Below the pieces are notes generated by a model, which saw only the letters and a list, made by a program, of their open reading frames with translations, had not been told where the DNA came from and searched no databases. 20,000 nt of DNA, taken from the IMG/VR virus record IMGVR_UViG_3300005512_000013, one strand, 5' to 3'. Of this stretch, positions 3,006-20,000 are shown piece after piece (the first letter of the stretch is position 1; every line of letters starts with the position of its first letter). The DNA is from an uncultured virus (IMG/VR IMGVR_UViG_3300005512_000013) (taxonomy: Duplodnaviria; Heunggongvirae; Uroviricota; Caudoviricetes). The translations under genes and the position numbers were made by a program.

Positions 3006-3021
3006 GGTGTTGTGTCCTCTG

Positions 3022-3095: not shown

Positions 3096-3096
3096 T

Positions 3097-3153: not shown

Positions 3154-3165
3154 CGGGTGTTCCCT

Positions 3166-3408: not shown

Positions 3409-3430
3409 GGGTGATTCCTTTGGATTGAGT

Positions 3431-3493
3431 CGTGATAGTGATTGTGAACTGTCCCCCACTTTGGGGGCAGCCCTGCGGCCGCCCCCTCCGTGG
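3431..3493 (-). repeat. Intergenic repeat copy 4 (3431-3457) plus upstream hairpin (3456-3493)
   Basis: CCAC-GGA-GGGGGCGGCC-GCAG-GGCTGCCCCC-AAA-GTGG running into GGGACAGTTCACAATCACTATCACG. Confidence 0.9.
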
Positions 3494-3498: not shown

Positions 3499-3765
3499 TC
3501 AGGCGCGCACCTGTTCGGTGCCGCCCTTGGGGTAGAACGTGACCTCGAAGCGCCGGCCGATCTTCGCTGCGTGCTGCCGCGCGAAGGTTTCGGCTTCCTC
3601 TCGGGTCATGTTCTCTCGGGCCATCCAGTTGACGGCTCCGGTTTCGAGGTTCCGGATGCCGAACATGACGGTCGCCTCGAGGACCTCTTCCGCCGGTGCC
3701 GCCTTCATGGCAGCGAGTTCGGCTTCGAGTTCGTTGACGCGGTCCTGCAGTTCTGCCTTAAGCAT
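3499..3765 (-). CDS. First early gene, 88-aa hypothetical with N-terminal coiled coil
   Basis: GAAAGGAACACC-ATG; LKAELQDRVNELEAELAAM heptad pattern. Confidence 0.85.
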   Translation of the reverse strand: MLKAELQDRVNELEAELAAMKAAPAEEVLEATVMFGIRNLETGAVNWMARENMTREEAETFARQHAAKIGRRFEVTFYPKGGTEQVRA

Positions 3766-3813
3766 GGTGTTCCTTTCGGTTGAAGTGTTGAAGCGGAGGG
3801 TTCCTGCCCCCCA

Positions 3814-3931
3814 GCCGCCAATGCAGTTAGCCGAGCTTGCGAGGCTTGCCGCCTTGCCGCCTTGGCTATCGAGTGCAGCTCTGCTATCGTGCAGCTGCTG
3901 CCGCCAATGCAGCCCGCCGAGCTTGCGAGGC
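3814..3931. repeat. 32-bp direct repeat pair in the early leader
   Basis: gccgccaatgcag-NNN-gccgagcttgcgaggc at 3814-3845 and 3900-3931 (29/32 identical). Confidence 0.9.
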
Positions 3932-4062
3932 CGGTGGCTGAGTGGGCTGCCTCGGCCATCGACTCATTGAGCGAAAGAAGCAGGTAACCACACGTCTACA
4001 CCTTAGCCACCAGCAGTACATTAGACGAGAGGCAGCCCGCGAAGGCAGCGATGCAGCGGCGA

Positions 4063-4088
4063 TGTTGGTGGCAAAGGGGCGAAGCCCC
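4063..4088 (-). promoter_or_regulatory. Putative N4-type virion-RNAP hairpin promoter (proximal)
   Basis: Template (+) strand TGTTGGTGGC-AAA-GGGGC-GAA-GCCCC; 5-bp stem with a GC-GAA-GC minihairpin core. Confidence 0.7.
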
Positions 4089-4130
4089 GCTTGGGTGTGT
4101 GCGACCGACGAGTCCGCGAGGAGGGAGCTG

Positions 4131-4156
4131 TGTTGGTGGCCGAGAGGCGAAGCCTC
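4131..4156 (-). promoter_or_regulatory. Putative N4-type virion-RNAP hairpin promoter (distal)
   Basis: Template (+) strand TGTTGGTGGC-CGA-GAGGC-GAA-GCCTC; same geometry with a compensatory stem change. Confidence 0.7.
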
Positions 4157-4159
4157 GAG

Positions 4160-4580
4160 GTTCTTGAAGAGGGGGGTTATGGGGGGAAACTAAAAAGATT
4201 AAAAGAGAAGATAGCCGCCTGTGTATTCCCAGGGGGTAAGTCGATTTCCCCGATCCCGAGTCGAAGGCGCAGCAGCTCCACTGATGTAGCAACTACCACT
4301 GGTAAGCCACTGATAGACTGCTATGAGCTCTGGGTTGGTAGCTAAGGGGATACTGAGACGGAAGCTAAGCAGTCTAGGTAGCTCCTTAGACACCAACTAT
4401 ATTATGTATTACTAATATACTTCTTAGTATATACTACTAAGCCATACAACCTTTACGGCATCAAAAACCCACTCTACACTCTTCCCATCCAGCGCCTGCC
4501 AACGTGGCAGTGACACGCAGACGGAAGCTAAGAGGCTTAGGGTGTTATCGTATAAATATTATAATAAGTCCCCCTAAGTC
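4160..4580. other. Non-coding late/early junction, probable genome-terminus or origin region
   Basis: No credible ORF; G6-TTAT-G6 run, AT-rich tract with a 12-bp palindrome, CTAAG-type short repeats. Confidence 0.45.
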
Positions 4581-4620
4581 GGGGCGGCCCAGCCGGCATT
4601 GCTGCCAACCAGACCGCCCC
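4581..4620 (-). terminator. 18-bp GNRA-capped hairpin after the giant gene (terminator or processing site)
   Basis: GGGGCGGTCTGGTTGGCA-GCAA-TGCCGGCTGGGCCGCCCC, 13 nt after the stop; 5 G.U pairs fix it to the - strand RNA; no immediate U-tract. Confidence 0.55.
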
Positions 4621-4633
4621 CACAAGGAGAGTA

Positions 4634-7600
4634 TCACTTTCCTAACTTGTCCGCCAGGGAGCCACCTGCGGATCCCGGTCCCATCGCGTTCCCCTTAGGA
4701 GTCGCAATGGTACCTGAGAGGCCGGAGGATCCTCCCTGAGGCGTTCCAGCCCCGCTTACTCCCGGAGATGAGTCTCCAGTCGTCTGCGGAGTTTTGGGCG
4801 ATTCAAAGCCCGCTACGTAGTCAGCCTTCAATTTGGCATAGTCCCTAGCTCGGCCCTTGAGACGAGTCTGCTTAGGAGCCGGCCCCCGGTATTCGGGGAC
4901 TGCATTGAAGTTCCCCAGGATCTGGAGATTCTTCGGACGATGCGATTGAGGCGTACCACTGGCGTCCTTGAAGTCACCAGTCGCTCCTCGGAGCCCCGCC
5001 ACCAGAAGGGGACGGAATTCCGCGGGACCGTACTTGTACAAGAACTCCTTAGCCTGACTCGCAGCCTCAGCGGGGTTGCCCTCAAGGAGAGCGCTGCCGC
5101 CCTGCTTCACCAGATCGGTGAACGCAGTGATGCTCTGGATCATCATAGACGGTCCAGGCATGCCGGGGGTGTTCATACCGAAGGAGCGCTCCTGGGCCTT
5201 AGAGCCAAAGACCGCGCCTCCGCTGAGCTTCCCGACAGAGGAAGTCAGACTATTCATAATCATATCAGTTAGGAACGACCCGGCCCCAAAGACAGGCATA
5301 CGAGCAAGAGCGGTGGTCATCTGCCCAGGGGCATCAGTCCGCCAGTCCTCCGCGATCGCCTCCGGGGAGTCGCCGTTCTTCATCCTGTTCAGCGAGTACC
5401 ACATGACCTCACCGAAGTAGAGAGGCATGAGCATAGCCGCGGTGGCACCGAGGCCGGTAGCCGCCAGGCCAGCCATGACTTCTCGCATGAACAGAATAGA
5501 ATATTGTGATAGCTGCTGCCACATACGGACAACGGGGCTCGTGTTCAAGTTGGTCGTACCAACTCGGGGCTCCATGTTCGTCTTGGCAACTTGGTTGAAG
5601 AGAAGCTGCTGGAGGCCAGTAGCCGCCTTGCCGGACTTGAGAGACTCCTTGCCTCTTCCGAGGCCAGGCTCCCAAGCGACAGCATCAAACATCTCTTCAT
5701 ACTTCAGGAACGTGTTATCAGGCATATAGTCTTCAGCCAGCTCAGACACCCGCCGAGCCATCTCCGGAGAGAGTAGACCCAGGCCGTGCATCTGAGTAGC
5801 CACGTCAGCCTTCACACCGTTCTCCTTCGCAAGGCGTCGAATCAGCTTGGCGTCAATAGTGCCCTCAGGGTTGGAGGCAATCCAATCGTTGAGAGCGTCA
5901 GCCAGCTTCATGGCCTTAGAGTTTCCGTCGGCGTCCGTGACCAGCATCTTCCGGAGAAGCTGCTGAGCAGGGATCATGGCCGCCTCACGCTGAGCGAGCT
6001 GCACTCGTTCAAACGCGAAGGAGCCCAAACGACGGATCTTCTTGTTAGCCTTGTCGTGGAAGCTTTCCTTGAGCGAGGGGTCCAGGGCCATTGCAGCCGA
6101 GGCCTCGTCGCCCATGTTCCAGATGTGACCGAAGCCAAGCTTCGTCATATGGTAGGGCATGGTGATACCGATGGCGTGCATCGAATCCCGCATGGCCCCC
6201 ATGTCACCGGCGTACTTTGGAAGAGTCATCTTCGTTCCGTCGGTGAACATCTTAGCTGCACGATTGACCAAGCCAGCCGTGCCTTCCACAATGAGGGACG
6301 CAGTCGTCCAGTTAGGCGTGGTCGCAAGACCGACCGCCGTCTGAATCGTAGGAGCAACAGCTTCGAGGAAGTCATTGCCCGACTCATCCTTATACGAAGG
6401 GTTACGGCCCTGGGCAAGCCTGTACTGAGACTCGAGGTTCTCAATCTCCTTGATCGCAGCGCGCTGCTGAGAATCGGAGAGCTTGACCATGGTACCGTCC
6501 TGCGAGACACGCGCCCGATGGACGCGAGCCTTAAGAGCATTCAGGAGATCGCCATAACCGAAGCCGGTAATGCCGTAGTACTCCTGATTAAAGAACTTGT
6601 CCGTGACTCCATGATCGAAGGCCATAAAGGTCTTCAATACATTAATAGGAGTACGGTTCAGACCCCGACCAGCAACACCGTCGTTCAAGATACGTCGGAA
6701 GTCACCGCCGCTCATGAAGCGGTTGTTAGCGAAGGAGTAACCACCGTGACGACTGCGATACAACATCTTCATTGCTTCGTAGTCGGCCGGCGAGGATACT
6801 TCCCTACCCGAGGCAAGTACCGCACGGAACTTAGCTCGGTCCTCCGGATCGGGGAAGTCCCGATCAAGGTGGCGCATATAGAAGGGGACATTCTTACTGT
6901 CCGTGAACACAGCGGGGTCAACGCGCCCCTGCATGGCCTGCTTGTAGACATCCCGCAACTGAGTGGGCATATCCTTAGCGTGCCACTGACCGGCCTCCAT
7001 TTTCTCTTGGAGAACCTGAGACGCCAGCCAGAACTCGTCAGAACGATCACCGCCATCAAAGCCGATGTCGTACTTGCTTTCATCAATGTTCAGCTTGCCT
7101 TCGTCAATAATAATATCAACGAGATCCGAACCATAGACGGAGTCCAGGGTATCGACATGGCGAGCCCGATCGGTGGGAGACATTGCTGACTTCCACGGAG
7201 CGAAGATGCCATAGTCGTGCATGAATTGTGCATTCACGAACCCCTGTCGTTCCTCGGGAACGGAGGGATCATATTCAAGTCGTCGAATCTGCTCTTGGCG
7301 GATGCCGTCACCAACCTTGATGGACATCTCGCGCATAGCAGAATCTTCCTTGATGATCTGGCTAAGCTGAATAGGCAGCTGGCGATTCCCGTCACCGACG
7401 AGACTATCGACCACCCACTTATCCATCTCACCAGTTTGATGCGCGTTCTTATACGCACGGTCGTACAGCTTAGCGAATTCACGCGAAGCAGTCTCGACCA
7501 GGTTGGCGGCATGCGGGTTCACACGCCCCAACTCATCCAGAGCCTCGGTATTATCCGGATGGCCGATGAAGGTTTCTTCAAACGCATCATCAACCATACG

Positions 7601-10600
7601 AACGAACTCAGGGTCCTGGATCTTCTGAGCCATCTCAAAGAGTTCAATGGACGCCGACATCGGCTTGCCATACAGCGCTCGCTGAAGCGTCTGGATCTCC
7701 TGCTGCGACATGCCCATACTAAAAGCCTGAGCAGCGGAACGCTCCTCGAAGCCAAGAGTATTGTTGAGCATCTGAGCCGCCCAGTTGATCTCATCCGTCA
7801 TCGAACGCCACGCCGAAGAGGTGCCCTGCAAAGCAATGCCCTCACCGACAAACATAGCCGCACGTCGGAACTTAGAGTCACCCACGGTCTCGCGACGACC
7901 AGCGATCTTCCCGTCAATCATATGATCAACGATAAGCTTCTTCTCGTCCTCAGTGAAACCGTCTAGGCGAACTCGACCGAACTCTTCGTGAGTAGCCGGG
8001 TCACCATCTGCAATCTTACGGGCAATCTTTGCACGCTCTTCGATCGTGAGACCGGAGTCGCGCATAGCATACCTCGTCTTCTTGCGGGTGCCCTCACCAA
8101 GCAGCGTCCTTTGGACACCAGCGATGGATCGCTCAGAAGGAGTCGCGTGCCCAAGCTCCGCCAAGCGGTTCTTGAGAGACTCAATCTTATTGCGGATCAT
8201 CGGTAGATCTTCTTCAGACGCTGTTCGTGATTCGTCCATCGCCTCAGTCAACGCCTTGCGAAGGGCGTCCTCTGTGTTGATGTTCGAAGAGTGATTAAAC
8301 CACATTTCGTTAAATGCCTTACGACCCGACCACAGCACAGGCTCCGCAGTGTTAGCAATGCGGCCCAGGCGCTCAAGGACCGTAGCGGGCTTAAGCCTGT
8401 CGGCTCTAATGCCCTTAGCCTCGATCTTAGGGGTCTCGTAGATCTTTGCGATCTTACGAATACGATCACCGTAACCGGCGCGATACAAAGCAGTAAACTC
8501 TTCACCGAAGTTCTTAGTCACCTCAGTATCGATCGTACGTGAAAGCAAATACCAGGACATCATCTGAGCTGCGAACTCCTGCGACGCAACACCCTGACGG
8601 TGAGAGTCACCGCTCTTGAGGTCGTCGTAGAACTTCTTAAACAACTCATTGCCCTTCTTGTCTCCATGGATAGCAACAAACGCGTCATTGAAAGTCTTCA
8701 AGTCCTCGGGCGTACCCTGAAGGATACGGCGATGGAACTGAGACCTCATCGACGTGAGGGCATGGGACGACGGTCCGCCGCCCTTGGCTCCCTTACCAAG
8801 TGCCATCCCACGGTGGACGATAGCGTGTCCAATTTCATGAACAACAATATCAAACACCTCCATGGCCTCCATGCCTCTCATATCCTTAAGGATAGAGACG
8901 CGATGAAGCATCTGCTGCGAGCTGTCAATCATAGACCGCATCTTAGCAGTACCAGCTTCGCCGGTGAACTGGAACTTGATCCCAGGGAGGAGATCCCCCA
9001 GGAGGTCCATGTTCATAGCCATCATCAAACCGAATTCGCGAGCAGCGTCTTCATCCTTAAAGACACCCGCCTTCTTAAACTCATCAATCAGAGTGTTCAA
9101 AGCCGGGTAACGCTTTTCACGAATTACCTTATCAAACTCATTAGCAAGAGTTCGGCCATTGCTAAAGATAGGCCCAGAGTTATCCGGGACACCCTCAGCA
9201 ATTAGCTTACCCTCCTGCTCAGTTTCCATATCATCGAGAACTCGACCAGCCGACGCATCGGTAATCAGATCGCGCTCAGGCATGTTAGCCATAACGGCTT
9301 CCAGCTTAGCTCGGTTAACACCTCGCGTGTTATAGTCCAGCTCGTCTCCCATGATAGCAGCAATGTCCTCTCGGAACGTGCCTTCTACTTCAGAGTTGAG
9401 ACGAGATTCGATAATATTAAAGTTATCATAAAACTTCTTGCCCATGCCTTCCGTAAAGTCCGATCGACGCAGGAAAGACACGGGAGGAACAGAGCCCTTT
9501 ATTCCCTCGGCCATGTTTCTCTTGGCTCGGGAAGAATACTTAGCAATAGAGGCCATCTTCATCTCGTCCTTACCAGAGAGATGATATGCCCACGCCGCGT
9601 GAGCAGCGTCTGCGTTCCAGCGAACCTCTCCGTCCTCATCTGCGGATTTCAGGTGAGACATGTCGAAGACGCCGGAGTTCTCGTAAATACCCAAGATTTG
9701 ACTACCCCGGATATAAGCAAGGGCATCAAGCCCAGACGAACCGGAGATAGAATCATCAAAAGACATCCACCGGTTAGCGCCGTCCGTGACTTCGCCAATT
9801 CCCTTACGGGCGGCGTCGATACGATCCTGGCTAACCTTACCTTCGCGGTCAGGGTGGAGATGTGAGAAGGCTCTAGACCTATACTCACGAGCGCCCATCT
9901 GATCCACGAGGTTGAGCTTCTCCATCTTCATTTCAAGCATCGACGCAAACCACAGACGACGAATCATCGGCTGAGACTTGGGGTCAATACCAGAAGCACG
10001 GAGCTGGCCCATAGTACGCCAGAGAAGAGTCTTCATTGGAACGCGGCTCAGAGTAAGATCGCGGCCAAGGGAATCGATGTAAGCCGCAGGCCTACGCTTT
10101 CCGTCCTCAACCTGGAGAACCTTAAGGTCCCCCTCAGTAATCATATCTTGCAGCAATTCCTGAGTAAGTTCTTCTGGCTTCGAGATACCAAAGAGCTTAC
10201 GGGCCAGGCCCATAGCTTCGGGATCCTTCATCAGGGTTTCACGAACAGACCCAAGACCCATCAACGTAGTAATGTTAGCAGGCATAAAGGACTCATCGAC
10301 AAACCCTTCCTGCCACTCCTTCAGCCTGGCTTCGTAGTACGATCCGTCCGCATCGTCCTCAAGACGCCTAGCGGCGTACTCGTTAAACTTAAACGCAGCT
10401 TCTTCAGCGTCCACCCCGAACTTGGTCATAATAAACCAATGCCCGAAACGGACAGACTCTTCAGCCGCGCCCATGCCAATACCAAAGTCATTGGAGAAAA
10501 CAGACTTCGCCATAATGCCGGTGATCAACGCGCCGGACGTAATGTTACTACCCTCAAGAACAATACCTTCTCGAGGAGCAGGCCCGAGCAGCGCATCAGC

Positions 10601-13600
10601 GTGCATCCAGTTCCCAGTGGGGTCGTTCACGTACAGCTCTCTAAGAGCCTGCAAGAACGAACCAGCGGGATAGGCGGTTCCAGTATCAGGAATAATCTGC
10701 ACGTCTCGCGTGCCAGCTTCCTTCTTAGCAGCAATCTCAGTCTCGCCCATGAGCTCTTCCAGATAAGACTGGATGTCTCGTTGGACGGTATCCATAAAGC
10801 CCTTCTGGCCTTCTATAGTCTTAAGGTCAAAGCCTTCACCGTTTTCGGTGGACTTCAACTTAGACGTACCTGAGGTCATGCCTTGCTTCACGGCTCTCTC
10901 TACGTGCATCAATCGGAAGACTCGCCCAAAGGAGTCCATGTCCGTGATCGGGATGCCAATAGAGTTGCTGTAATCATTGACTTCGCGCCACGTCCAGTTG
11001 CGAAGCCATTCCTTATCATTCTCGATTCTCATACCGTCGTTACCGCGAGGGGCAACGGGCTGAGGATTCTCGATCATGAATGTACTCAATTTATTTGCGA
11101 TCTTCAGGGGAGACGGCACAGCCATCTCGCCAAGAGTAATCGCAGGGCCAGATACTTCGCCCTTCATGGCGGCCTTAATCTTATCGCGCATCACGATATC
11201 AGACGTGCGGCGAAGACGGAAGGCCTGGAGCTGAGGAATGCCGGCATCAGTCATGATACCTTCATCGCCCTGCCCAAACAGAGTCTGAGTCCGAGTAGAG
11301 GGGACTTGACTACGGATATCATCCCAGAGGATGTCCGAAAGCTCCTCAGGCATCTCACCGTTCTGTTGTCGGTAATCAGCTCGCCATTCCTGGCGGATCT
11401 CTTCCATCTTCTCTCGGATACCCGTAGCTCGGCTCTCATTAGCAGCCCAGTCACGGTAGAAGCCTTCAACAGTCGGCTCCACGTAATCCTTGATCGGAGG
11501 GTTCTGAACCCCCAGGAAGTCGATCATCATATCCTGAACAACAAGCTGAGCAGCCACCAGATTGCGGTCCTCGGCAGACATCTCATTCCAGCCCCTTGCA
11601 TGCTCAGCATCGAGCTCCCAGATAGGAGCTGCGTGCTCGTCAGACACGGCTCGGTACACCGGCCGGATAGACCGGTCGGAGTCGTTAGGATTAACCCAAC
11701 CCTTGCCTCCCTGCCCTGCCCCGGTCCAACCACGTCCAGCGGACGAGTGAATCGAAGAGTGCAGACGTAGTCCGGCTTCGTGAGCAAGCTTCATCTTTGG
11801 ATCTAGATCGTCAGCAGTAAGACCAACACTCTTAAGAGCACTGTCGGCCTCTGCGTTTCGCATCCTATATCCAACACTATTCATTGCACGGATGGTGAGC
11901 TCATCTCGCCGCGTCAGCCAGTTCTCGAGGAAATCTCGGAGGGCCAGCTCAGGCGTATCAGACTCTGCCATAACTTCGCGCATCTTAACTGCAATATTTT
12001 CTTCAGCCACCTTGATCTGGTCCACAGTAGCCGCACCACTCTTAATGAGCATGAGGTTCTTCATGTGCCAGCGCCCAACAGTAGCGAGGAATTCATCGCC
12101 ATAATCGTTGGACCAACCACGACGCTTCGCAACGGCGACAGCTTTTTCCTTTACCTGCCGCTGGAAGTTCTCGTAGTTCTCTCGGTTAGCCTTTTCGTTT
12201 CGCTCTTCCCGAGCTGCTTTATCCTGAGGGGATTCGTCGCCCTCCGGCGCAGGCTCCCTCTCCCATGCCGTATCTTCCATACTGCGCTGAGCGTAGAGAT
12301 CATCATACGTAATGTTACGCATTTCGACTTCGCCCCTCTGAACCACAGTAGAGTCGCTACCGGCGTCACGCCCTCTGTGCTCAATCTGAAGATCAAGATC
12401 AGGGTTAAACGCATCCGCGTGGAGGGAGTTAAGGTTACGAATAGAATCACGGAAAGTCTTGGCGTCGGGCGTCTTAAGAATCTTGCCCATCATACCGCCT
12501 TCGCCCTTCCACTTCTTACCGGCCTTATCTGCAAAGGCCCAACCAAGGACGCTCGCAGTCTGGTAGAGAATAGAGTTAGGCTGTCGGTTACCCGACTTCG
12601 CGTCAGCTTCGAGCTTCTTCGCCAGATCGGGGAAAGCTTCCTCGACCATGCCTCGGAATTCAGCAGCTGCTGGAGTGTCAATACTAAAAGCTTCCTCAAG
12701 GAAGTCAGCAATGGCTCCAGACATAGCATCGCCACCGGCGCCGTAAGATCGGGTCATAACAGGACGCTTCATGAGCTTGTCCCGAAGGAACTTCTTCATG
12801 CGGCCCTGAGCAGCAGTACCTGGATCATCAGCCTTAGCCTCTTCTCCAATTTCCTGCTTACTACCAAACTTACCAATAGAATCAAACAAGTGATTCCACA
12901 TATCTGCGCCGTCAGCAAATACTTCCTCATTTCCAAAGCGTCCGCTACCAAAAGCGGTCTCGCTAAAGCCCGTACCCTCAGACCCTTCTATTCTACCCTG
13001 GAGCCGGCCTTGGCTCTTAGCAAAGCGAGGCTCAGCCGGGATATCGATCATCCCATCCCAGACAGTGGAGTAGAAGTCGGCAGCTACAACTGCCAGGCCC
13101 TCTTCGTCAAGCTTAGCGCTGACGTTCTGAGCCAGAGCTTCGGCCTTGAGCATCTCCATTCGAATGTCCCCGTTGAGGAAACCATCCTTAGGATCCCAGC
13201 CCATAGCCGTCTTAACTTCGTCGATACCACGAGCAATGTCGTAGTCCGAATCAATAATATTTTTAACATTAGCATCAGACTTACCGTAAGCCGCCTGCTG
13301 ACGAGCAGCAAAGACAGCGGCGTTGAACAAGCCCTTAGCCAGAGACACAGCCTGTGAAGCCGCGTCCCACGAGTTGAGGATCTCATCGAACTGCTTAGTA
13401 GAAAGCGTACCGCCTTCAAACTTAGCCTTTCGGATTTCTTCATCAACCTTGCGAACAGCGGTATCCAGCTCAATCAGGGTCAGCATCTCTGCTGCCTCAC
13501 GGAGCTCTGCTTCGCCCTTGCTGCCGCCCTTCTCGGCCAGCGCCAAAAGCTTTCGCTTCTCGCCGACCTTCAGGCTCTTCTTAATGCCGGCAGCATCAGC

Positions 13601-16600
13601 TGCCTTCTTCAGGGCTTCGCCCTTAAGGTTGGCAATGTGCTCAGGGATTTCAATCTCTTCCCCTTCGGCTGCCTTACCCCGAAGATCATTAGCAACAATA
13701 GCATCCCGCATGTCCTTCAAACTCTCAAGACCAATGGCACGAGCAAAAGCGTCCATGCCGTCAAACTGCCGGAAGATCATACCGGAGCGGATGTTAAGCC
13801 AGTCGGTAATACCGCCGGGCACCGTAGCCAGAGTCTGCCAGCCAGCGCCCAGGCCGTCCAGCGATCCTGCGCCCTGTGAGTTACGCATAACCATGGGACC
13901 AATGGCACCCATGTTATTGAGAGCAACGCCCTCCTGCATAATCAACGTAAGGTCATCGTGGATCCCCTGATGGAGATGCACTGGCTCCTGAAGCATTCGA
14001 GAGTAGTAATCATCCATTTTTTGCTTAATGTCGCCACTCCAATCACGAACAGGAGACCCGAGAGCCTTTGCGTCACGAGACACCAAGTGCAGCCCACGGT
14101 CCTTCTGCTCGAAGGGGTGCTTAGGAACATTAGCCTGGATCTCTTCCGCAGAAGCGTTCTTAAGGTTAGTGTAGAACTCAATAATATCGTTGAGCTCTTC
14201 ATGAGAGAATTCCCGAGGGGTCCCGTCCGGGTTGAACAGGATCTGCCTCTCGCCCTCTCTAAGCATGAACTCTTCAATAAACTTGACCTGCTTCTGAACC
14301 TTCAGGTTACCCGTGGGGTTCTGAGTTCGGTCAGCACTGAATCGAACGTGAGCATAGGTCTCGCCACGAGTGCCGACCTTAGTGTCTGCCTTAATCTCAG
14401 CGGCCGTGTCTCCAGTCAGGGACGCACCGTCTCGGTACATCCCGATCAAAGCCAGGCCAGCCTGATTACCACGAACGAAAGACTGGGAGCCATTAACAAG
14501 ATCCATGGGGCTATCAAACCCGAGATCCTTAGCAGCCAGCTTTGCAATCATAGGAGCGACAGTGCTCTTCCATTCTTCAGTAGGGGAGCTACCTCGCTGA
14601 GGCACGGGGATACCATGCCGCTTGAAGATAGCGTTTCTGTTCTCGACGGAGATACCGTGGTTACCGAAGAGCGCATTTCGAGCGCCCAGATACAGGGCGT
14701 CCTCTTCCGTTCTAAGGTAAGCCGCCCAGCCTTCTTCCCCGAGCTCCTGTCGCTTAGCGGCAGCAGCTTCCTGGGACACAGCTCGGTACGGAGCAAGCAT
14801 CTCTTGTTCGAGATAATCAATTTCATTAACAGTCTTAATCTTGCTGTTGTACTGCGCCAGCCGGATACGATCCTCGAGATCGGCTTCGCCATTCTTGACC
14901 TTGCCTTCGAGGCGCGCCATCTCGGCACGAGCAGCAGCAGAACGAGCAGTGTTGAAGTCAGCGTCGACACGAGCAAGGCGTTCTTCCGCAATGCGGCGAA
15001 CCTCAGCAAGGTCGTACTTATTGGTGCCCACGCCGGAAGTTCCCCGAGCAGGACCAAAGACTGCATCACGGAGGTTGACACCTGCGTCTGACTCAGGCCC
15101 AAAGAGGGGCCGAGCAATCGCGAGCATCTCTACTTCGCCAATGAACCTATCATGTCCACCAGCTCGTAGTTCCTCCATGTGCTTATTAACTTCATTCAAC
15201 ACATTCATAAAGTAGAGACGCTGCCCCTCGCGGTCAACCCCGAGGATCAGCATCTGATCAATATTCAGCTTACCGGCCGAAAGTTGATCGTCTACCTGCT
15301 GGATAAACCTGTGATACCCCACGAGGGCGGTAAGCTCTTCGATGTCCAGTCCCTTTACGGCGTCAGCGTTCTCTGCGGGATAGCCGAACTTCGAGTGAAG
15401 CTCCTGCCGGAGAGTCAGCTTCTTCTGGTTCTTATGCACCTTAGCAACCTCTCCCTCGACGTCCTTAATCATGTCCCCAAGCGATCGCTCGGTAGAGATG
15501 TTAGCGACATCGAAGGTCTCATGCAGAGTCTTCAGGTTTTCAATAGCCTTATCAAAATAGGCCGTGCCTTCAAGGAAGGCCTTATTATCACGGAACTGGT
15601 AATCGCGGAGACTACCACCTCCGACAAGAAGCTTAAGCTCCTGAGCCGTGCGGTAAGCCGCAGCGGGCCCAGCAGCCTTATGTTCTTCAATCTGCTTAGC
15701 AATAGCCTCATAGCTGCCTCGAGTAAACCGGCTCGCCAAGAAGACGGCGTTCGGATCCTCAGTAAGGCCCTTGAAGTTATTACCCTGTCCGTGACGACGA
15801 GCCGTGCGGATAGCGTTGTGCGCTCCGCCCAGATCAATCATATCGGAATCACCATTATCGAAAGACCGAGCAAACTCCGGATCAAGTTCCACCAGCGCGT
15901 GGCGGAGAACTTCGACCGGCATTTCCTCAAAGCCTTCCTTCTCAAAGCCGTCAACGACGTCATGTGCTCGGGACTCGACCGCACCGAGCATTCGGTGGGA
16001 TACGACCTGAGCAGCAATAGCGTCGACTTCGACTTCGTCAACATCTAGTCTCTGTGCAATAGCCTTACGGACAGCGGCCTGGGCCTCTTCCGCAGTATGC
16101 ACCTTCTGAGAAGCTTCGGCCTGGGCCTTCTTAGCCACCTTCTTAACCGGAGGAGGCTCAGGCACAGTAACCCGCTCGAATTCGACAGGAGCATTCTTGG
16201 CTTCTTCAACCTTCTGCGCAGCCTCATCGACCTTCTTTTGAGCGGCTGCCTTAGCCTCAGCCTCAGCGCCAGCACGCTCACGACGCAGGGCATCGATATC
16301 AGCCTCAGCATCCTCGCGAGCATCAGAACCCTTCTTGTAGTCAGGAGTATCCTCAAATCGTGAGGGGCCCTCAGGCTCTCCCTCAGCGGCTTCAGTCTCA
16401 GCCTTAGCCTTCGCTTCAGCCTCAGCCTCGGCTTCTTCGGCTTCGATCCTAGCCTTCTCAGCCTTAGCTTCCGCGAGAGCCTTTTCCTGCTCTTCGAGTT
16501 GCTTCTGCTTGGCGGCTTGGGCCTCTGCTTCGCGCTTTGCGTTTTCCTTCTCAGCGGCCTCTTCGGCCTCTTTCTTTTCCTTGAGACGCTGATCTTCGGC

Positions 16601-18640
16601 CTTCTTAGCTTCGGCCTTAGATGCCGCCCGGTCTGCAGCCGCTTGGCGCGCCTCAGCCCGAGCATCGTCAACAGCCTTGTTGGCTGCAATCAGATCGTCA
16701 ATCACAGGGTCAGCGGCTTCGGCCGTTTCCTGTGAAGCCTTACCGAGACCTTCCGCCGACTTATCCTCAACCTTGTGCTCTTGAACAATAGCACCGGTCT
16801 GGATATCATCGCGGGCAACCTCGTCTTCAGCCTTAGCTCGATCCGTCTCAGTCTTGCCCTTAGCAATCTGCCTCTCCAGCTCCTGACGACGCAGGTGCCG
16901 AGCCGCGACTGCATCGGGCTTTACAAATTCATCTTTAATAATATCATGCGCAGCTTCTCGAATGATAGCTGCCTTTTCTTCTGGCGTGCCTTCAAGGTCG
17001 TCCAGATCCACCTCATCACGCATACGGGCTGCCACCTTATGAGGGGCAACTCCCGCGCGCCCAGCATCTCTCTCGATGCCGGCAGACGTAGAGGTCACAA
17101 TAGCTTCGTCTTCGATCCCGCTCTTGGCGAGGATCTTCCGGGTAATCCCAGCAGTCACAGCAGATGATGCTGCTTCCTTGTTAGACTTGCCTCGGACACC
17201 TTCAAGGTTGCCGGCCAAGCCCTTAAGGCTTTTGTCGGCCATTGCCGTCAGGCCCTTGAAGCCTACACGAAGAGCGGAGCCCAGGGTAACCGCACCCGCC
17301 ACGCCCATGAGGCCGCGAAGAGCGACCTGATCGAAGCTGCGGATTGAGGCCATCTGGCCCTTGCCGTAGACCACGCTGTTGAGATCATCGATGTTCTGGG
17401 TATTCATAAGGAAGGCACCCACGCCACCGGCAACGCCGTCAGCAGAAGCACCAGCCAAGAAGGTCACCCAGTTATCGTACTCGTCCATATTGTTCCAGGC
17501 GTATCGGAGCCGAGACGCAGTGGTCTTCAGTTCCTTGCCCTTACGAGCGGCCTTGAAGGCCTTGACTCCGGGGACAACAAAGTCACCCAGGACGCGGGTC
17601 GGCAGAAGGCGGCCGGCGGTAGCCAGTCCCTTAGCTGCCTTGTGAGTTGCGAGAGCGCGGTTCGTGAGAGAGCCCGCCTTAGCGGCGCCGCTCACGTACA
17701 CACTCGCGCCACCGGAGGGGATCGCCAGCAGAAGCGCCATGCCGACCTCACCGATGGTATCAGGATCATTAATAATAGTAGGAAGCATCTGCCCGAAGTT
17801 CTCAAGCATACCGCCCCAGTCATCCGCCGAGGCGTGCTGCTGGAACTTGGCTTCCTTATAGAGACGGTTCATCCCGTAGATGAGCGCGTCTTGGTTTGTG
17901 AATCGGGACATGGTATCCCGCTTCATCCCAGCGGCCTGAATAAGGTAGCGACCAGCCTCCGAGGAGTTCATCGCTTCCCAGGCATTATCCTGAGCTTCGG
18001 CAGTCCAGGTGGGATCAACCCGCTTGGTAACCATATCCGAAATATCATCATACGTAAAGAGCGACTGGAACGGGCTGCTGAGGGTGTCGCCCCAGCTGCC
18101 TTCCTTGCTCGTATCCACGCCCCGAGCCTCAGCAGCAGCGAGGAACTCGGGAGAGTTCGTTAGGCCGAGGATCTTAGCGACGTCGGAGTTCTGCCCCGCG
18201 TCGTGCATAAACTGGTTCCGGGCACGGAGATCCGTACCGAGGAAACCCCAGTGCTCGTCAGACGTCATAGAGCGCGCTTGCTCCCAGGCTCCTTCGTGGA
18301 TCGACTCGACCCAGAAGTCATTGTTGGAAGCGTGACGCTCCGCTTCGGTAGCAACGTCAAGGCGGATCTTTTCCCAGGCCTCGATGTCTTCGCTAGCCCC
18401 GGAGGACATAGCCTTACCGAAGGCCTCCATCCGCTCATTGAATTGACGGAGGGCGCCAGTGCCGGTAGTAAGTCCGATTTGAGTCATCTCATCGGTATAG
18501 CGGGCACCAGTAATAATACTATTATGCTGACTAGCTGCATGGGCCTTGAGCTGAGCGTCAAGGTCCAGCTTTGCCTTCTCCTCGTCTACCGGCGCAATGC
18601 CGTTAGTGACGGGGTTCGGGACAGGGTTAAATTGAGACAT
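4634..18640 (-). CDS. Giant (4668 aa) virion/ejection protein with a single-subunit (T7/N4-type) RNA polymerase domain and a zincin-like motif
   Basis: 14-kb ORF with AAAGGAAAG RBS; motif B-like RDKLMKRPVMTRSYGAG (aa ~1953-1969); motif A-like WDAASQA (D~1759); ADFYSTV (D~1855); HEIGH (aa ~3268-3272); no Cys seen. Confidence 0.8.
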   Translation of the reverse strand: MSQFNPVPNPVTNGIAPVDEEKAKLDLDAQLKAHAASQHNSIITGARYTDEMTQIGLTTGTGALRQFNERMEAFGKAMSSGASEDIEAWEKIRLDVATEAERHASNNDFWVESIHEGAWEQARSMTSDEHWGFLGTDLRARNQFMHDAGQNSDVAKILGLTNSPEFLAAAEARGVDTSKEGSWGDTLSSPFQSLFTYDDISDMVTKRVDPTWTAEAQDNAWEAMNSSEAGRYLIQAAGMKRDTMSRFTNQDALIYGMNRLYKEAKFQQHASADDWGGMLENFGQMLPTIINDPDTIGEVGMALLLAIPSGGASVYVSGAAKAGSLTNRALATHKAAKGLATAGRLLPTRVLGDFVVPGVKAFKAARKGKELKTTASRLRYAWNNMDEYDNWVTFLAGASADGVAGGVGAFLMNTQNIDDLNSVVYGKGQMASIRSFDQVALRGLMGVAGAVTLGSALRVGFKGLTAMADKSLKGLAGNLEGVRGKSNKEAASSAVTAGITRKILAKSGIEDEAIVTSTSAGIERDAGRAGVAPHKVAARMRDEVDLDDLEGTPEEKAAIIREAAHDIIKDEFVKPDAVAARHLRRQELERQIAKGKTETDRAKAEDEVARDDIQTGAIVQEHKVEDKSAEGLGKASQETAEAADPVIDDLIAANKAVDDARAEARQAAADRAASKAEAKKAEDQRLKEKKEAEEAAEKENAKREAEAQAAKQKQLEEQEKALAEAKAEKARIEAEEAEAEAEAKAKAETEAAEGEPEGPSRFEDTPDYKKGSDAREDAEADIDALRRERAGAEAEAKAAAQKKVDEAAQKVEEAKNAPVEFERVTVPEPPPVKKVAKKAQAEASQKVHTAEEAQAAVRKAIAQRLDVDEVEVDAIAAQVVSHRMLGAVESRAHDVVDGFEKEGFEEMPVEVLRHALVELDPEFARSFDNGDSDMIDLGGAHNAIRTARRHGQGNNFKGLTEDPNAVFLASRFTRGSYEAIAKQIEEHKAAGPAAAYRTAQELKLLVGGGSLRDYQFRDNKAFLEGTAYFDKAIENLKTLHETFDVANISTERSLGDMIKDVEGEVAKVHKNQKKLTLRQELHSKFGYPAENADAVKGLDIEELTALVGYHRFIQQVDDQLSAGKLNIDQMLILGVDREGQRLYFMNVLNEVNKHMEELRAGGHDRFIGEVEMLAIARPLFGPESDAGVNLRDAVFGPARGTSGVGTNKYDLAEVRRIAEERLARVDADFNTARSAAARAEMARLEGKVKNGEADLEDRIRLAQYNSKIKTVNEIDYLEQEMLAPYRAVSQEAAAAKRQELGEEGWAAYLRTEEDALYLGARNALFGNHGISVENRNAIFKRHGIPVPQRGSSPTEEWKSTVAPMIAKLAAKDLGFDSPMDLVNGSQSFVRGNQAGLALIGMYRDGASLTGDTAAEIKADTKVGTRGETYAHVRFSADRTQNPTGNLKVQKQVKFIEEFMLREGERQILFNPDGTPREFSHEELNDIIEFYTNLKNASAEEIQANVPKHPFEQKDRGLHLVSRDAKALGSPVRDWSGDIKQKMDDYYSRMLQEPVHLHQGIHDDLTLIMQEGVALNNMGAIGPMVMRNSQGAGSLDGLGAGWQTLATVPGGITDWLNIRSGMIFRQFDGMDAFARAIGLESLKDMRDAIVANDLRGKAAEGEEIEIPEHIANLKGEALKKAADAAGIKKSLKVGEKRKLLALAEKGGSKGEAELREAAEMLTLIELDTAVRKVDEEIRKAKFEGGTLSTKQFDEILNSWDAASQAVSLAKGLFNAAVFAARQQAAYGKSDANVKNIIDSDYDIARGIDEVKTAMGWDPKDGFLNGDIRMEMLKAEALAQNVSAKLDEEGLAVVAADFYSTVWDGMIDIPAEPRFAKSQGRLQGRIEGSEGTGFSETAFGSGRFGNEEVFADGADMWNHLFDSIGKFGSKQEIGEEAKADDPGTAAQGRMKKFLRDKLMKRPVMTRSYGAGGDAMSGAIADFLEEAFSIDTPAAAEFRGMVEEAFPDLAKKLEADAKSGNRQPNSILYQTASVLGWAFADKAGKKWKGEGGMMGKILKTPDAKTFRDSIRNLNSLHADAFNPDLDLQIEHRGRDAGSDSTVVQRGEVEMRNITYDDLYAQRSMEDTAWEREPAPEGDESPQDKAAREERNEKANRENYENFQRQVKEKAVAVAKRRGWSNDYGDEFLATVGRWHMKNLMLIKSGAATVDQIKVAEENIAVKMREVMAESDTPELALRDFLENWLTRRDELTIRAMNSVGYRMRNAEADSALKSVGLTADDLDPKMKLAHEAGLRLHSSIHSSAGRGWTGAGQGGKGWVNPNDSDRSIRPVYRAVSDEHAAPIWELDAEHARGWNEMSAEDRNLVAAQLVVQDMMIDFLGVQNPPIKDYVEPTVEGFYRDWAANESRATGIREKMEEIRQEWRADYRQQNGEMPEELSDILWDDIRSQVPSTRTQTLFGQGDEGIMTDAGIPQLQAFRLRRTSDIVMRDKIKAAMKGEVSGPAITLGEMAVPSPLKIANKLSTFMIENPQPVAPRGNDGMRIENDKEWLRNWTWREVNDYSNSIGIPITDMDSFGRVFRLMHVERAVKQGMTSGTSKLKSTENGEGFDLKTIEGQKGFMDTVQRDIQSYLEELMGETEIAAKKEAGTRDVQIIPDTGTAYPAGSFLQALRELYVNDPTGNWMHADALLGPAPREGIVLEGSNITSGALITGIMAKSVFSNDFGIGMGAAEESVRFGHWFIMTKFGVDAEEAAFKFNEYAARRLEDDADGSYYEARLKEWQEGFVDESFMPANITTLMGLGSVRETLMKDPEAMGLARKLFGISKPEELTQELLQDMITEGDLKVLQVEDGKRRPAAYIDSLGRDLTLSRVPMKTLLWRTMGQLRASGIDPKSQPMIRRLWFASMLEMKMEKLNLVDQMGAREYRSRAFSHLHPDREGKVSQDRIDAARKGIGEVTDGANRWMSFDDSISGSSGLDALAYIRGSQILGIYENSGVFDMSHLKSADEDGEVRWNADAAHAAWAYHLSGKDEMKMASIAKYSSRAKRNMAEGIKGSVPPVSFLRRSDFTEGMGKKFYDNFNIIESRLNSEVEGTFREDIAAIMGDELDYNTRGVNRAKLEAVMANMPERDLITDASAGRVLDDMETEQEGKLIAEGVPDNSGPIFSNGRTLANEFDKVIREKRYPALNTLIDEFKKAGVFKDEDAAREFGLMMAMNMDLLGDLLPGIKFQFTGEAGTAKMRSMIDSSQQMLHRVSILKDMRGMEAMEVFDIVVHEIGHAIVHRGMALGKGAKGGGPSSHALTSMRSQFHRRILQGTPEDLKTFNDAFVAIHGDKKGNELFKKFYDDLKSGDSHRQGVASQEFAAQMMSWYLLSRTIDTEVTKNFGEEFTALYRAGYGDRIRKIAKIYETPKIEAKGIRADRLKPATVLERLGRIANTAEPVLWSGRKAFNEMWFNHSSNINTEDALRKALTEAMDESRTASEEDLPMIRNKIESLKNRLAELGHATPSERSIAGVQRTLLGEGTRKKTRYAMRDSGLTIEERAKIARKIADGDPATHEEFGRVRLDGFTEDEKKLIVDHMIDGKIAGRRETVGDSKFRRAAMFVGEGIALQGTSSAWRSMTDEINWAAQMLNNTLGFEERSAAQAFSMGMSQQEIQTLQRALYGKPMSASIELFEMAQKIQDPEFVRMVDDAFEETFIGHPDNTEALDELGRVNPHAANLVETASREFAKLYDRAYKNAHQTGEMDKWVVDSLVGDGNRQLPIQLSQIIKEDSAMREMSIKVGDGIRQEQIRRLEYDPSVPEERQGFVNAQFMHDYGIFAPWKSAMSPTDRARHVDTLDSVYGSDLVDIIIDEGKLNIDESKYDIGFDGGDRSDEFWLASQVLQEKMEAGQWHAKDMPTQLRDVYKQAMQGRVDPAVFTDSKNVPFYMRHLDRDFPDPEDRAKFRAVLASGREVSSPADYEAMKMLYRSRHGGYSFANNRFMSGGDFRRILNDGVAGRGLNRTPINVLKTFMAFDHGVTDKFFNQEYYGITGFGYGDLLNALKARVHRARVSQDGTMVKLSDSQQRAAIKEIENLESQYRLAQGRNPSYKDESGNDFLEAVAPTIQTAVGLATTPNWTTASLIVEGTAGLVNRAAKMFTDGTKMTLPKYAGDMGAMRDSMHAIGITMPYHMTKLGFGHIWNMGDEASAAMALDPSLKESFHDKANKKIRRLGSFAFERVQLAQREAAMIPAQQLLRKMLVTDADGNSKAMKLADALNDWIASNPEGTIDAKLIRRLAKENGVKADVATQMHGLGLLSPEMARRVSELAEDYMPDNTFLKYEEMFDAVAWEPGLGRGKESLKSGKAATGLQQLLFNQVAKTNMEPRVGTTNLNTSPVVRMWQQLSQYSILFMREVMAGLAATGLGATAAMLMPLYFGEVMWYSLNRMKNGDSPEAIAEDWRTDAPGQMTTALARMPVFGAGSFLTDMIMNSLTSSVGKLSGGAVFGSKAQERSFGMNTPGMPGPSMMIQSITAFTDLVKQGGSALLEGNPAEAASQAKEFLYKYGPAEFRPLLVAGLRGATGDFKDASGTPQSHRPKNLQILGNFNAVPEYRGPAPKQTRLKGRARDYAKLKADYVAGFESPKTPQTTGDSSPGVSGAGTPQGGSSGLSGTIATPKGNAMGPGSAGGSLADKLGK

Positions 18641-18691
18641 TATACTTTCCTTTTTGTTCTACCCACAACGGGGTGAAGTAAATAGAAAACC

Positions 18692-18715
18692 ACGCCTCCT
18701 CGGTAGAGGAGACGC
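18692..18715 (-). terminator. Possible intrinsic terminator/attenuator between the two virion genes
   Basis: GCGTCTCCTC-TACC-GAGGAGGCGT 10-bp stem followed by GGTTTTCTATTT. Confidence 0.5.
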
Positions 18716-18725
18716 AGTTAGATTA

Positions 18726-20000
18726 TTAGTCAATAGCGCCAAGGAATCTGGCGGCGTCATGAATAATTGTGTTTTGGTTGTCTACCTTCACAGGCTTGCC
18801 GCTAAGCGTAGCGTGCCCGCCGATGAGTGTTCCCACGTTTCCGGTCCTCTTCTTCCCGCGCACGAAAGTACGAGGATCGCCCTTAGTCCTGTCTTCGACC
18901 ATAGTAGGCCCAAACAGGGGGATAGGAAGTCCAGAAATATTCTCTACAGTCCGGCCAATAAACTTCAGGTTATCTAGAGTATATCTAGTCTGAGTATCAT
19001 AGCCCAGCTGAGTCTCTCGGAGATTAGCCGGATCCACATCAGCTCGGAAGGTACTGTCAACATCAAGATCGTAGGGACTGAGATGCTGGATAACCGCGTC
19101 GTTATCAGGGAACAGCATAGTCATAAGCGCAAGCTTGGCGGCCCACTTAGGGGGATTGGTATCCCACATGGTGAACCCCTGTGCCTTAGCGATTTCCTGA
19201 GTCTTCTTCCAGAGATCGTGATCTGGAGGCAGAGTACCAGCGCGGATCTGCTCGGCAACATCCCGAACAGCCTGAGCATCCTCTTCGTCGATCGGCACAC
19301 CGGCCTTCTTAAAGGTCGTGATCGTTTCATCGATCTGGTTGCCAAACGCGAGGCGTTCATCCTTAGTAGCTTGTCCAGTAACAAAGCCACGGAAAGGGGC
19401 CGAGTGATCAGCAAGATGACGTCGGTTGTTAGAGTCGGCCAGCCACTGATGGGCAGCCTCTGTACTTTCGCCGGCGTCATGGATTGCCTGAACCTGCTGC
19501 TCGTAGAAGACGTCCCCCGTCGAGCCCTCTCGATGGTTGAACATCCAATCCCACGTGCCTCCTGCAATGGAGCCAATAGTGGTTCTACTATATTCTTCAT
19601 TAAAATCATCAAGACCCATCATGCCTTCCTGCATGGCGTCAGTAAAGTCGCCGGTAAAGGGGGCAGCGGGCTTCGTGTTTCTAAGGCCATCTCCTGAGTA
19701 CAGCGAGGGGAGAGAAATAATCTCCGTTCGGACTACATCCCCATCCTCATTACGGATAGGCTCAGCAGCGTACCCATCCAGGCCAAGCTGATTACTGATA
19801 TCCAGAGCCATCTGAGTTGTGACTTCAGGATCTCTTAGCATCCACTGTTGAGTGAGATCATTGTACTGAATAACTTTCGCTGCCTCTGCGGCAGAGGTAA
19901 TACGCTGAGCGCCAACCTTGTCCCCGACAGAGTCGATTCGCTGATTAGCAACGTCGACATCAATGCCGCTGTAGTCTCCTCCGAATATTGACCAATCAAG
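18726..20000 (-). CDS. C-terminal part of a large protein, probably an internal virion protein (gp15-like position)
   Basis: Frame stays open from 19841 to the window edge (LDWSIFGGDYSGIDVDVANQ...), so the listed Met is internal; no Cys in 424 visible aa; lies directly upstream of the giant gene. Confidence 0.6.
   Translation of the reverse strand, partial: LDWSIFGGDYSGIDVDVANQRIDSVGDKVGAQRITSAAEAAKVIQYNDLTQQWMLRDPEVTTQMALDISNQLGLDGYAAEPIRNEDGDVVRTEIISLPSLYSGDGLRNTKPAAPFTGDFTDAMQEGMMGLDDFNEEYSRTTIGSIAGGTWDWMFNHREGSTGDVFYEQQVQAIHDAGESTEAAHQWLADSNNRRHLADHSAPFRGFVTGQATKDERLAFGNQIDETITTFKKAGVPIDEEDAQAVRDVAEQIRAGTLPPDHDLWKKTQEIAKAQGFTMWDTNPPKWAAKLALMTMLFPDNDAVIQHLSPYDLDVDSTFRADVDPANLRETQLGYDTQTRYTLDNLKFIGRTVENISGLPIPLFGPTMVEDRTKGDPRTFVRGKKRTGNVGTLIGGHATLSGKPVKVDNQNTIIHDAARFLGAID

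Follow-up and report, generated by a model that had tools for sequence, protein, structure and literature searches.

The stretch considered here, 20,000 nucleotides (nt) from an uncultured virus of the Caudoviricetes (IMG/VR record IMGVR_UViG_3300005512_000013; hereafter the window), raises the question whether its giant gene encodes an RNA polymerase (RNAP) that is ejected with the phage DNA and reads hairpin promoters lying just beyond the gene. The open reading frame (ORF) in question occupies 4634..18640 on the minus strand, begins with ATG and comprises 4668 codons; its translation is free of cysteine, as an earlier note on this DNA had claimed, and we treat the product as a candidate ejected virion protein with an RNAP-like centre. 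The most likely reading of the locus, to which we give a probability of roughly 0.55, is that of a far-diverged, active virion RNA polymerase (vRNAP) in a T7-related phage. As it joins the motif-B hallmark of the T7/N4-type enzymes to adjoining hairpins of the N4 kind, it may be a new and very distant branch of the injected-polymerase strategy.

The giant protein belongs to a family of seven full-length members of 4618-4900 amino acids (aa), which are about 30-72% identical. A word-indexed protein search returned five other proteins of 4618-4799 aa with 40-70% identity across aa 1500-2500, and an exhaustive search of 1.84 billion representatives with aa 1250-2449 at an expectation value (E) of <=0.001 gave five proteins, namely the query, two full-length relatives and two fragments, so adding one new full-length relative of 4900 aa and 32% identity. 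Cysteine is absent from all seven. The whole 4668-aa protein had no match among Pfam, PHROGs and PDB sequences, and the same was true of every other member of the family; a profile of aa 1401-2400 produced chance rows only against the PDB sequences, and a phage collection gave no match to the locus by DNA or by tblastn with aa 1401-2700 or the upstream gene. Scans of IMG/VR and JGI data recovered only the same phage, or a 96% twin spanning the first 717 aa, and a narrow literature search found nothing on a protein of this kind of 4.6-4.9 thousand residues. Even if the polymerase should be dead, these giant proteins are a new, very rare and very large family of ejection proteins.

The ejection reading draws on composition and gene position. 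A JGI contig of 70.5 kb carries the identical giant gene and reveals the genes upstream of it, all on one strand, in the order beta-helix protein, ClpP-like protease, large terminase (TerL, with a T7-type RNase-H domain), proteins of 152, 215 and 1199 aa, and the giant gene. The last four products contain no cysteine at all, and the beta-helix protein, the protease and TerL contain 8, 3 and 4; at the 1.1% cysteine of these three neighbouring proteins, the chance of meeting none in 4668 aa is about 5e-23. The same mark is seen in the ejection proteins of known phages, as gp15 and gp16 of T7 and gp50, gp51 and gp52 of N4 have no cysteine, T7 gp14 has one, and their neighbours mostly have some. 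Among the vRNAPs of the Schitoviridae, 11 of 11 diverse members are free of cysteine, as are 111 of 120 close relatives of the N4 protein, the other nine having one residue each. The giant protein, free of cysteine and encoded last in the virion and packaging block, is therefore very probably ejected from the virion along with the phage DNA, which agrees with the earlier proposal for this last-encoded gene. Three marks place it with ejection proteins of the N4 gp50 kind: the lack of cysteine, the position after a T7-type TerL and smaller cysteine-free proteins, and a match between its HExxH domain and subdomain C1 of the N4 protein, which is described below.

N4 gp50 is the vRNAP of that phage and is portrayed as beads on a string, with an N-terminal domain that has predicted membrane-spanning helices at 224-278, an RNAP domain and a C-terminal domain; gp52 and gp51 are the other ejection proteins and are compared there with T7 gp14, gp15 and gp16 (PMC13434306). 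In the giant protein, aa 299-317 and 439-457 (17270..17746, minus strand) form hydrophobic helices with a Kyte-Doolittle mean of >1.5 over 19 aa and are candidate membrane-spanning segments. An A/E/K-rich low-complexity spacer, evident from the translation and poorly conserved, occupies aa ~640-900 (15941..16723, minus strand), and the AT skew is anomalous at this spacer, in the interval 16001-17000.

The polymerase question turns on the centre of the protein. Three motifs had been read there by the earlier note, and all three are found in the stated order, WDAASQA at aa 1758, DFYSTV at aa 1855 and KRPVMTRSYG at aa 1958, each of them invariant or nearly so across the seven members. The T7 strings with which they had been compared were quoted correctly, the T7 RNAP reading TKRSVMTLAYGS and QDIYGIV; the N4 vRNAP reads KNPLTITIYGSG and so does lack VMT in its motif B, and the further facts given for it (3500 aa, no cysteine, encoded on the strand opposite the N4 early genes) hold as well. 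The T7-type RNAP signature that these strings were taken to form stands for motif B, which is of the T7 type and statistically real, but not for motifs A and C, which score nothing against T7- or N4-family block profiles.

The motif-B stretch, corresponding to the fingers and O-helix, spans aa 1926-2011 (12608..12865, minus strand, with KRPVMTRSYG at 12740-12769) and matches a T7-family profile. This profile and the corresponding motif-B block hidden Markov model (HMM) were built from ten RNAPs that are 25-50% identical to that of T7. In all seven members the block HMM scored 9.7-12.6 bits at one and the same place, whereas the best of 210 shuffles reached 0.5. An N4-family motif-B block gave 2.5-6.3 bits, six of the seven members exceeding the best shuffle (3.0). 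With hhalign, aa 1300-2700 aligned to the T7-family profile through aa 1926-2011, which paired with T7 600-697 over 85 columns (E 7.7e-4, probability 25%; reversed control E 0.61), and against the N4 RNAP domain the best match was again motif B to motif B (E 0.069). K1958, Y1966 and G1967 are invariant and the K-to-Y spacing of 8 is that of T7 and N4; R1953 lies 5 residues before the lysine, not 4. PF00940, run on 1000-aa pieces, aligned its motif-B positions 134-193 in four of the seven members (E 0.07-0.16, 11.2-12.3 bits). In an ESM Atlas search with aa 1501-2300, PF00940 and N4-vRNAP clusters were the nearest named ones at 0.83-0.85, values that serve as a lead only on the scale of that tool. 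Single-sequence hhalign against N4 gp50 also paired motif B with motif B (E 0.52); against T7 RNAP it gave a match in the wrong region (E 0.021, probability 2%), which was rejected.

A second local homology lies downstream of motif B. The first subdomain of the N4 C-terminal domain, C1, covers residues 2124-2375 and has a conserved HExxH (PMC13434306). The giant protein has an HExxH...QEF domain at aa 3266-3358 (8567..8845, minus strand), with HEIGH at aa 3268, and when the realigned domain profiles were compared with hhalign this segment paired with N4 2226-2313 over 83 columns (E 1.7e-4, probability 49%). The reversed control gave E 0.39 and a score of 16.7, compared with 42.2 for the true pairing. 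The aligned stretch runs from HExxHA through L..LM.QF to QEFAA/NEFMAW and has the HExxH...E arrangement, and HExxH itself is present in 14 of 15 aligned vRNAPs, the exception being JA-1. In comparisons of full-length profiles the HEIGH region and the HELVH region of N4 were always the top match, with E 0.0036 against a narrow profile of N4-like vRNAPs and 0.027 against a profile of N4 joined by 3 close and 11 diverse vRNAPs. As reversed queries still gave E values of 0.05-0.09, these full-length results are weak by themselves. The N-terminal parts (aa 446-578 with N4 420-578, E 0.038, reversed 0.26) and the C-terminal thirds (E 0.11, reversed 0.16) gave weak matches with hhalign.

Judged from these alignments, the HExxH domain is homologous to subdomain C1 of the N4 vRNAP, and the order of a motif-B region followed by this domain is that of N4. 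The homology points to a distant kinship with N4 gp50 as a whole, and not to a T7 RNAP fused to gp16. The earlier description of the product as a gp16-like protein with a T7-type polymerase is thereby revised in part: the ejection type and the T7-type motif B are retained, and the C1 homology favours kinship with the whole of N4 gp50. The family does not nest within the known Schitoviridae vRNAPs, as BLAST, HMMER and Pfam found no match to them and the local matches appeared by profile-profile comparison only.

The third line of evidence comes from the DNA beyond the stop codon. N4 early promoters are conserved from -17 to +1, with a GC-rich heptamer centred at -11 and flanked by inverted repeats; their extrusion requires a 5'G and a 3'A in the loop and a closing G:C pair, and the bases specifically recognised are -11 A/G, -10 G, -8 G and +1 C (PMC4496689). 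In another description they form mini-hairpins in which GGA or GAA makes up the 3-base loop on a 5-bp stem (PMC13037366). Stems of 5-7 bp fit the type, whose place is close upstream of early genes at the genome end that enters first. In the window, the plus (template) strand has two hairpins of this architecture, both with 3-nt loops on perfect 5-bp stems and located 478-558 nt downstream of the stop of the giant gene, much as had been claimed (two GC-GAA-GC template hairpins about 500 bp past the stop). Hairpin 1, GGGGC-GAA-GCCCC, is at 4076..4088, and next to it, as transcription would run, come TTT and GCCACCAACA; hairpin 2, GAGGC-GAA-GCCTC, is at 4144..4156 and is followed by TCG and GCCACCAACA. 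Both are candidate early promoters, and the small ORFs downstream are on the same minus strand as the giant gene, so the co-oriented small genes that they had been said to face are indeed there.

On the coding (minus) strand the two sites read GGGGC-TTC-GCCCC TTT GCCACCAACA and GAGGC-TTC-GCCTC TCG GCCACCAACA, which puts GCGAAGC on the template, together with a closing G:C pair and the bases -11 A, -10 G and -8 G. In the N4 record, the coding-strand sequence is GTTGC-TTC-GCAAC TTAT GGA at P1 and GAAGC-TCC-GCTTC TTTT GGA at P2. Both hairpins in the window thus have the N4 architecture, the N4 strand and three of the four bases recognised there. The 20 kb contain only three such GAA/TTC hairpins, against a mean of 0.54 in shuffled sequence, and at least two anywhere were seen in 9% of 300 shuffles; the two discussed here are 68 nt apart in one long non-coding stretch, with the same orientation and the same flank, and are contained in a 47-nt direct repeat (4043-4089 and 4111-4157, 72% identical). 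By nearest-neighbour DNA folding they are unexceptional (z -1.0 to -1.4). Scans with a sigma-70 consensus, a weak guide here because the host may follow another one, found no site in 1-4700 on either strand, where 1.7 were expected, and none on the minus strand of 4300-20000.

Other repeats occupy the surroundings. The leader of about 306 nt that separates the first ORF from the hairpins contains a 32-nt direct repeat (3814-3845 and 3900-3931, 91% identical). On the other side of the hairpins, towards the stop codon, there are a 30-nt repeat with the core CTTAGCTTCCGTCT on the minus strand (4349-4378 and 4512-4541) and AT-rich palindromic blocks (4390-4445); these repeats and palindromes may belong to a genome end, an origin or a packaging site. 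A hairpin-plus-GCCACCAAC pattern was sought in viral contigs and matched five loci, of which three show the same sequence around the match; all five were treated as chance, as none has tblastx similarity to the phage considered here. One viral contig of 2150 nt has AGGC-TTC-GCCT, 4 nt and GCCACCAAC at 1126-1148, a layout identical to that of the hairpins in the window, with no other similarity to this phage, and this too is probably chance.

Several results weigh against an active polymerase that reads these hairpins, and most of them concern the catalytic core outside motif B. Block HMMs of the T7 or N4 family for T/DxxGR, motif A, D-I-Y and motif C scored no higher than shuffled controls, and hhalign limited to the stretches before and after motif B gave nothing above reversed controls. 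The same hhalign set-up pairs the N4 RNAP domain with the T7 family over 330 columns at E 5e-9, so a polymerase domain as well conserved as that of N4 would have been seen; the giant protein is either far more diverged from T7 than N4 is or has no complete polymerase. PF00940 stayed below its cut-off of 22 bits (best 12.3) and gave no match with whole proteins. The Pfam families of the N4 vRNAP (PF21769, PF21894, PF21624 and PF21867) were found in none of the seven members at E up to 10, and the N4 gp50 control matched all four at E 1e-22 to 1e-97. The h-h-H/F-D pattern was not found downstream of motif B, nor was a convincing motif C. Structure prediction speaks neither for nor against the right-hand fold that the earlier note had made a refuting condition, as two AlphaFold models resting on the seven sequences were poor and almost all-helical (mean predicted local distance difference test score, pLDDT, 55.4 with a predicted template modelling score, pTM, of 0.44; pLDDT 60.4 with pTM 0.57). 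Foldseek with the 1000-aa model reached E 0.09 at best, a wide fold search found only a SAP-like hairpin at model residues 262-313, and the 391-aa model reached E 0.47 at best, with no RNAP among Foldseek's 1000 chains. For aa 1300-1940 the ESM Atlas had no usable match, which traces its signal to the motif-B part. At the hairpins, the template has G (4071, 4139) at the position 11 nt from the loop centre where N4 has C; a C stands at 10 nt in both copies (4072, 4140), against 11 nt in N4 P1 and P2. The first small ORF beyond them (3499..3765, minus strand; 88 aa, no family match) starts about 306 nt from the proposed transcript start, a distance that in N4 is ~10-50 nt. Finally, genes are known for about 28 of the 74.5 kb of the phage's contig, and a separate RNAP gene is possible in the rest.

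Within the centre of the protein there are candidates for the undetected motifs. WDAASQA (aa 1758-1764; 13349..13369, minus strand) is a candidate motif A, with W, D, A, S, Q, A and the following V invariant in seven of seven members, and WDA[AS]SQAV, with D1759, fits the D-small-x-S/T-polar-small-hydrophobic pattern of the T7 and N4 families. DFYSTV (aa 1855-1860; 13061..13078, minus strand), in which A-D-F-Y..V-W-D is invariant in all seven, is a candidate counterpart of the D-I/V-Y..V element of the T7 family, which has D-[IVAM]-Y at the matching place, or else of motif A. For motif C the candidate residues are D2114 in ..ITYDDL.. (the best), D2038 in AFAD, and D/E2334-E2335, none with a profile score above controls. 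Other assignments were rejected for scores no higher than controls together with a broken canonical order or spacing: FDGM/NIRSGM (1616-1629) for motif C, GIHDD (1559-1563) for motif A or C, NPxGN (1441) for the NPQ box (also a T/DxxGR lookalike), and LHSS...SDE (2293-2335) for pre-C and C. Q..KGL at 1763-1771, another T/DxxGR lookalike, was rejected on its score, which was likewise no higher than controls.

The small-gene region beyond the first ORF (99..3457, minus strand) carries elements of a different kind. A 27-nt element, GGGGGACAGTTCAYATTCACTATCACG, occurs four times on the minus strand (99-125, 2340-2366, 3022-3048 and 3431-3457), against none expected, and two further copies (934-943 and 1674-1683, minus strand) consist of the core TCACTATCAC only. 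The core has six exact matches in the window, all on the minus strand and all between 100 and 3441; every element lies 10-30 nt before a start codon, and the four full copies all stand behind a GC-rich inverted repeat. In the 10 kb upstream of the giant gene the element does not occur, and a pattern scan of viral contigs found it nowhere. Its heptamer TCACTAT is present in all five annotated T7 promoters with which it was compared. The 27-nt elements look like phage-specific promoters for a sequence-reading polymerase, which may be the giant protein or another enzyme. Over 1-4000 the AT skew of the plus strand is -0.26 to -0.33, and its GC skew is +0.16 to +0.20 over 1-3000 and +0.04 in 3001-4000; the coding (minus) strand of the small genes is thus low in T and G and rich in A, with C also enriched in 1-3000, and the giant gene differs in this.

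The remaining neighbours indicate the type of phage. On the JGI contig, family matches identify the ClpP-like (head maturation) protease at 1790-2482 and the T7-type large terminase at 3439-5220. TerL is closest to the Autographiviridae, with 35-39% identity and E down to 1e-99 over 2771 records, and all genes visible in about 28 kb are on one strand, which bears out the T7-like one-strand layout that had been claimed. To our knowledge, neither T7 nor N4 uses a prohead protease, and with a ClpP-like protease standing beside a T7-type TerL the head module may be of another kind. The cysteine-free 152-aa protein encoded after TerL (JGI contig 5217-5675) has a glycine-rich N-terminus, G.GPRSGTS, resembling a nucleotide- or sulfate-binding loop, and may not be an ejection protein at all. 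The gene for the 1199-aa protein, a candidate ejection protein without a Pfam or PHROG match, lies at 6316-9915 of the contig, and its 3' part at 18726..20000 (minus strand) of the window. In tblastn against the neighbours of vRNAP genes at 12 Schitoviridae loci, the 152-, 215- and 1199-aa proteins showed no significant similarity, the best E values (0.011 and 0.037) coming from short pieces inside the vRNAP genes. Between the 1199-aa gene and the giant gene, an intrinsic-terminator-like hairpin with 14 pairs and a T-rich tail (18688..18719, minus strand) is the first-listed site in a terminator scan of 4300-20000; phage Pokken has an annotated terminator at the same place, before its vRNAP gene, and the hairpin may limit how many copies of the giant protein are made. 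Directly after the stop of the giant gene there is a GC-rich inverted repeat without a T run (4581..4620, minus strand), which is absent from the list of that scan. Rfam and tRNA scans of the DNA returned nothing.

Taken as a virion polymerase, the giant protein would be the counterpart of both T7 gp16 and N4 gp50 and would be built as beads on a string, with N-terminal hydrophobic helices, the A/E/K-rich spacer, a central region derived from a single-subunit RNAP of the T7/N4 type, a gluzincin-like HExxH domain homologous to N4 C1, and a long C-terminal part. It would be packed in the capsid and pass unfolded through the tail and the cell envelope, a passage that would explain the absence of cysteine, and would then refold at the inner membrane. 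Next it would bind the two GCGAAGC mini-hairpins formed by the template strand at 480-560 nt past the end of its gene, start a transcript near GCCACCAACA and, like N4 vRNAP, read the co-oriented small genes independently of the host polymerase.

A bolder form of the same idea, which we regard as doubtful, would make the family a third, independent-looking lineage of injected single-subunit RNAPs, found in a phage with a T7-like TerL and having a T7-type motif B, an N4-type HExxH domain and a palm diverged beyond recognition. Such a lineage would link the free RNAP of the Autographiviridae with the vRNAP of the Schitoviridae and might use two promoter classes, the N4-like hairpins first and the 27-bp double-stranded elements with the TCACTAT core for the small genes that follow. 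Few phage groups are known to inject a preformed RNA polymerase. The gp66 protein of crAss-like phage phi14:2 is a polymerase of the two-barrel kind with no known relation to the T7 type. It and N4 vRNAP are the only structurally characterised virion-packed phage RNAPs according to the account of PMC13434306. If the giant protein is indeed a virion polymerase, it would offer a second and much more distant data point on the parts that are needed for tail passage, catalysis and self-inhibition, the last a role proposed for the N4 C-terminal domain, and would widen the set of hairpin-reading polymerases that can be used on single-stranded templates; it would also bear on how the N4 enzyme arose from a T7-like polymerase.

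The most serious alternative, possible and clearly less probable than an active enzyme, is that the giant protein serves in ejection or in the internal core and makes no RNA. Motif B would then be a relic, or a nucleotide- or nucleic-acid-binding helix kept for another use; transcription of the early genes would fall to the host RNAP or to a polymerase with its gene elsewhere, and the hairpins would have another role, whether at the close of the late operon, as an origin or priming site, or as a signal for packaging or for an end. The freedom from cysteine and the position of the gene speak for ejection only and fit this explanation, as do the undetectable motifs A, C and T/DxxGR and the failure to find a fold match. 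Yet a full T7-type motif B, with its K, Y and G invariant down to 30% identity, is unexpected in a decayed relic, and its succession by a C1-like HExxH domain is the order of an active enzyme, N4 gp50. The DNA is similarly divided. GCGAAGC-type mini-hairpins are also described at phage and plasmid priming sites (PMC13037366), and those of the window share a non-coding stretch of 870 nt with further repeats and AT-rich palindromes, as might be seen at a genome end or origin, with the 27-nt elements pointing to a further, sequence-specific transcription system; against this, the hairpins bear the N4-specific bases on the correct strand, and no sigma-70-like site was found in the early region.

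It is improbable that the protein is instead a polyvalent injected effector, in which unrelated modules, among them an HExxH peptidase and a DNA-binding SAP-like hairpin, serve to disarm the host and the likeness to polymerases is incidental. The conserved HExxH...E is typical of zincin peptidases, and great length with low-complexity linkers would suit such a protein; however, the HExxH module is that of the N4 vRNAP, itself a polymerase, the motif-B statistics stand, and no effector domain was recognised in Pfam or PHROGs, PADLOC itself not having been searched. A cytoplasmic giant protein outside the virion, such as a late-made component of a replication or transcription factory, would suit a gene that follows TerL and is not among visible head and tail genes, but is highly improbable given seven of seven members without cysteine, like known ejected proteins and unlike the non-ejected neighbours, the N-terminal hydrophobic helices and the likeness to N4 gp50 C1.

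The reading as a virion polymerase can finally be set against the systems that it resembles. With the T7 RNAP family the giant protein shares the motif B R..K-[KR]-x-V-M-T-x-x-Y-G, about 85 aligned columns around the O helix, and the conserved D-A-[AS]-S-Q-A-V and D-F-Y..V upstream in the T7 order. It differs in that this region is embedded in 4668 aa, where the T7-type enzymes are free proteins of ~800-900 aa, in its spacings (motif A to DxY 96 aa and DxY to motif B 103 aa, against 32 and 62 in T7), and in its sub-cut-off PF00940 score and undetected T/DxxGR, A and C motifs. With T7 gp16 it shares the position as largest and last of a run of cysteine-free proteins of rising size (here 215, 1199 and 4668 aa; in T7 196, 747 and 1318 aa), in a phage that also has a T7-type terminase. 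There is no sequence similarity between the two (hhalign E 0.39) and no lytic transglycosylase domain in the giant protein by Pfam, and the run here follows TerL and is not placed before a tail fibre gene.

Phage StenR_269 has a large, cysteine-free, helical and late-encoded protein of 2270 aa with low-confidence AlphaFold models, which its authors assumed to be a vRNAP from size, helicity and lack of cysteine alone (PMC10747016, Viruses 2023). As described there, it is set apart from the present family by its N4 layout, an N4-type capsid protein and a protein half the size; the phage collection, which may or may not include its genome, yielded nothing similar to the DNA of the window or to aa 1401-2700 of the giant protein. 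The closest comparison remains N4 gp50 itself. The giant protein and its relatives are 1100-1400 aa longer than gp50 (~3500 aa), their motif B is the T7-type K-R-P-V-M-T where N4 has K-N-P-L-T-I, and motifs A and C are not recognisable. The giant gene is co-oriented with the early genes, whereas the N4 gene is opposite to its early and middle genes; TerL is closest to that of the Autographiviridae, the spacing from hairpin to start is one base shorter than in N4 and the leader is ~300 nt. Both proteins, in turn, are giant, cysteine-free and encoded last after smaller cysteine-free ejection proteins; both have N-terminal hydrophobic helices, a central motif B with K-x7-Y-G and, downstream of it, an HExxH domain of the C1 kind; and in both phages GC-G(A/G)A-GC hairpins stand on the template strand ahead of small early genes.

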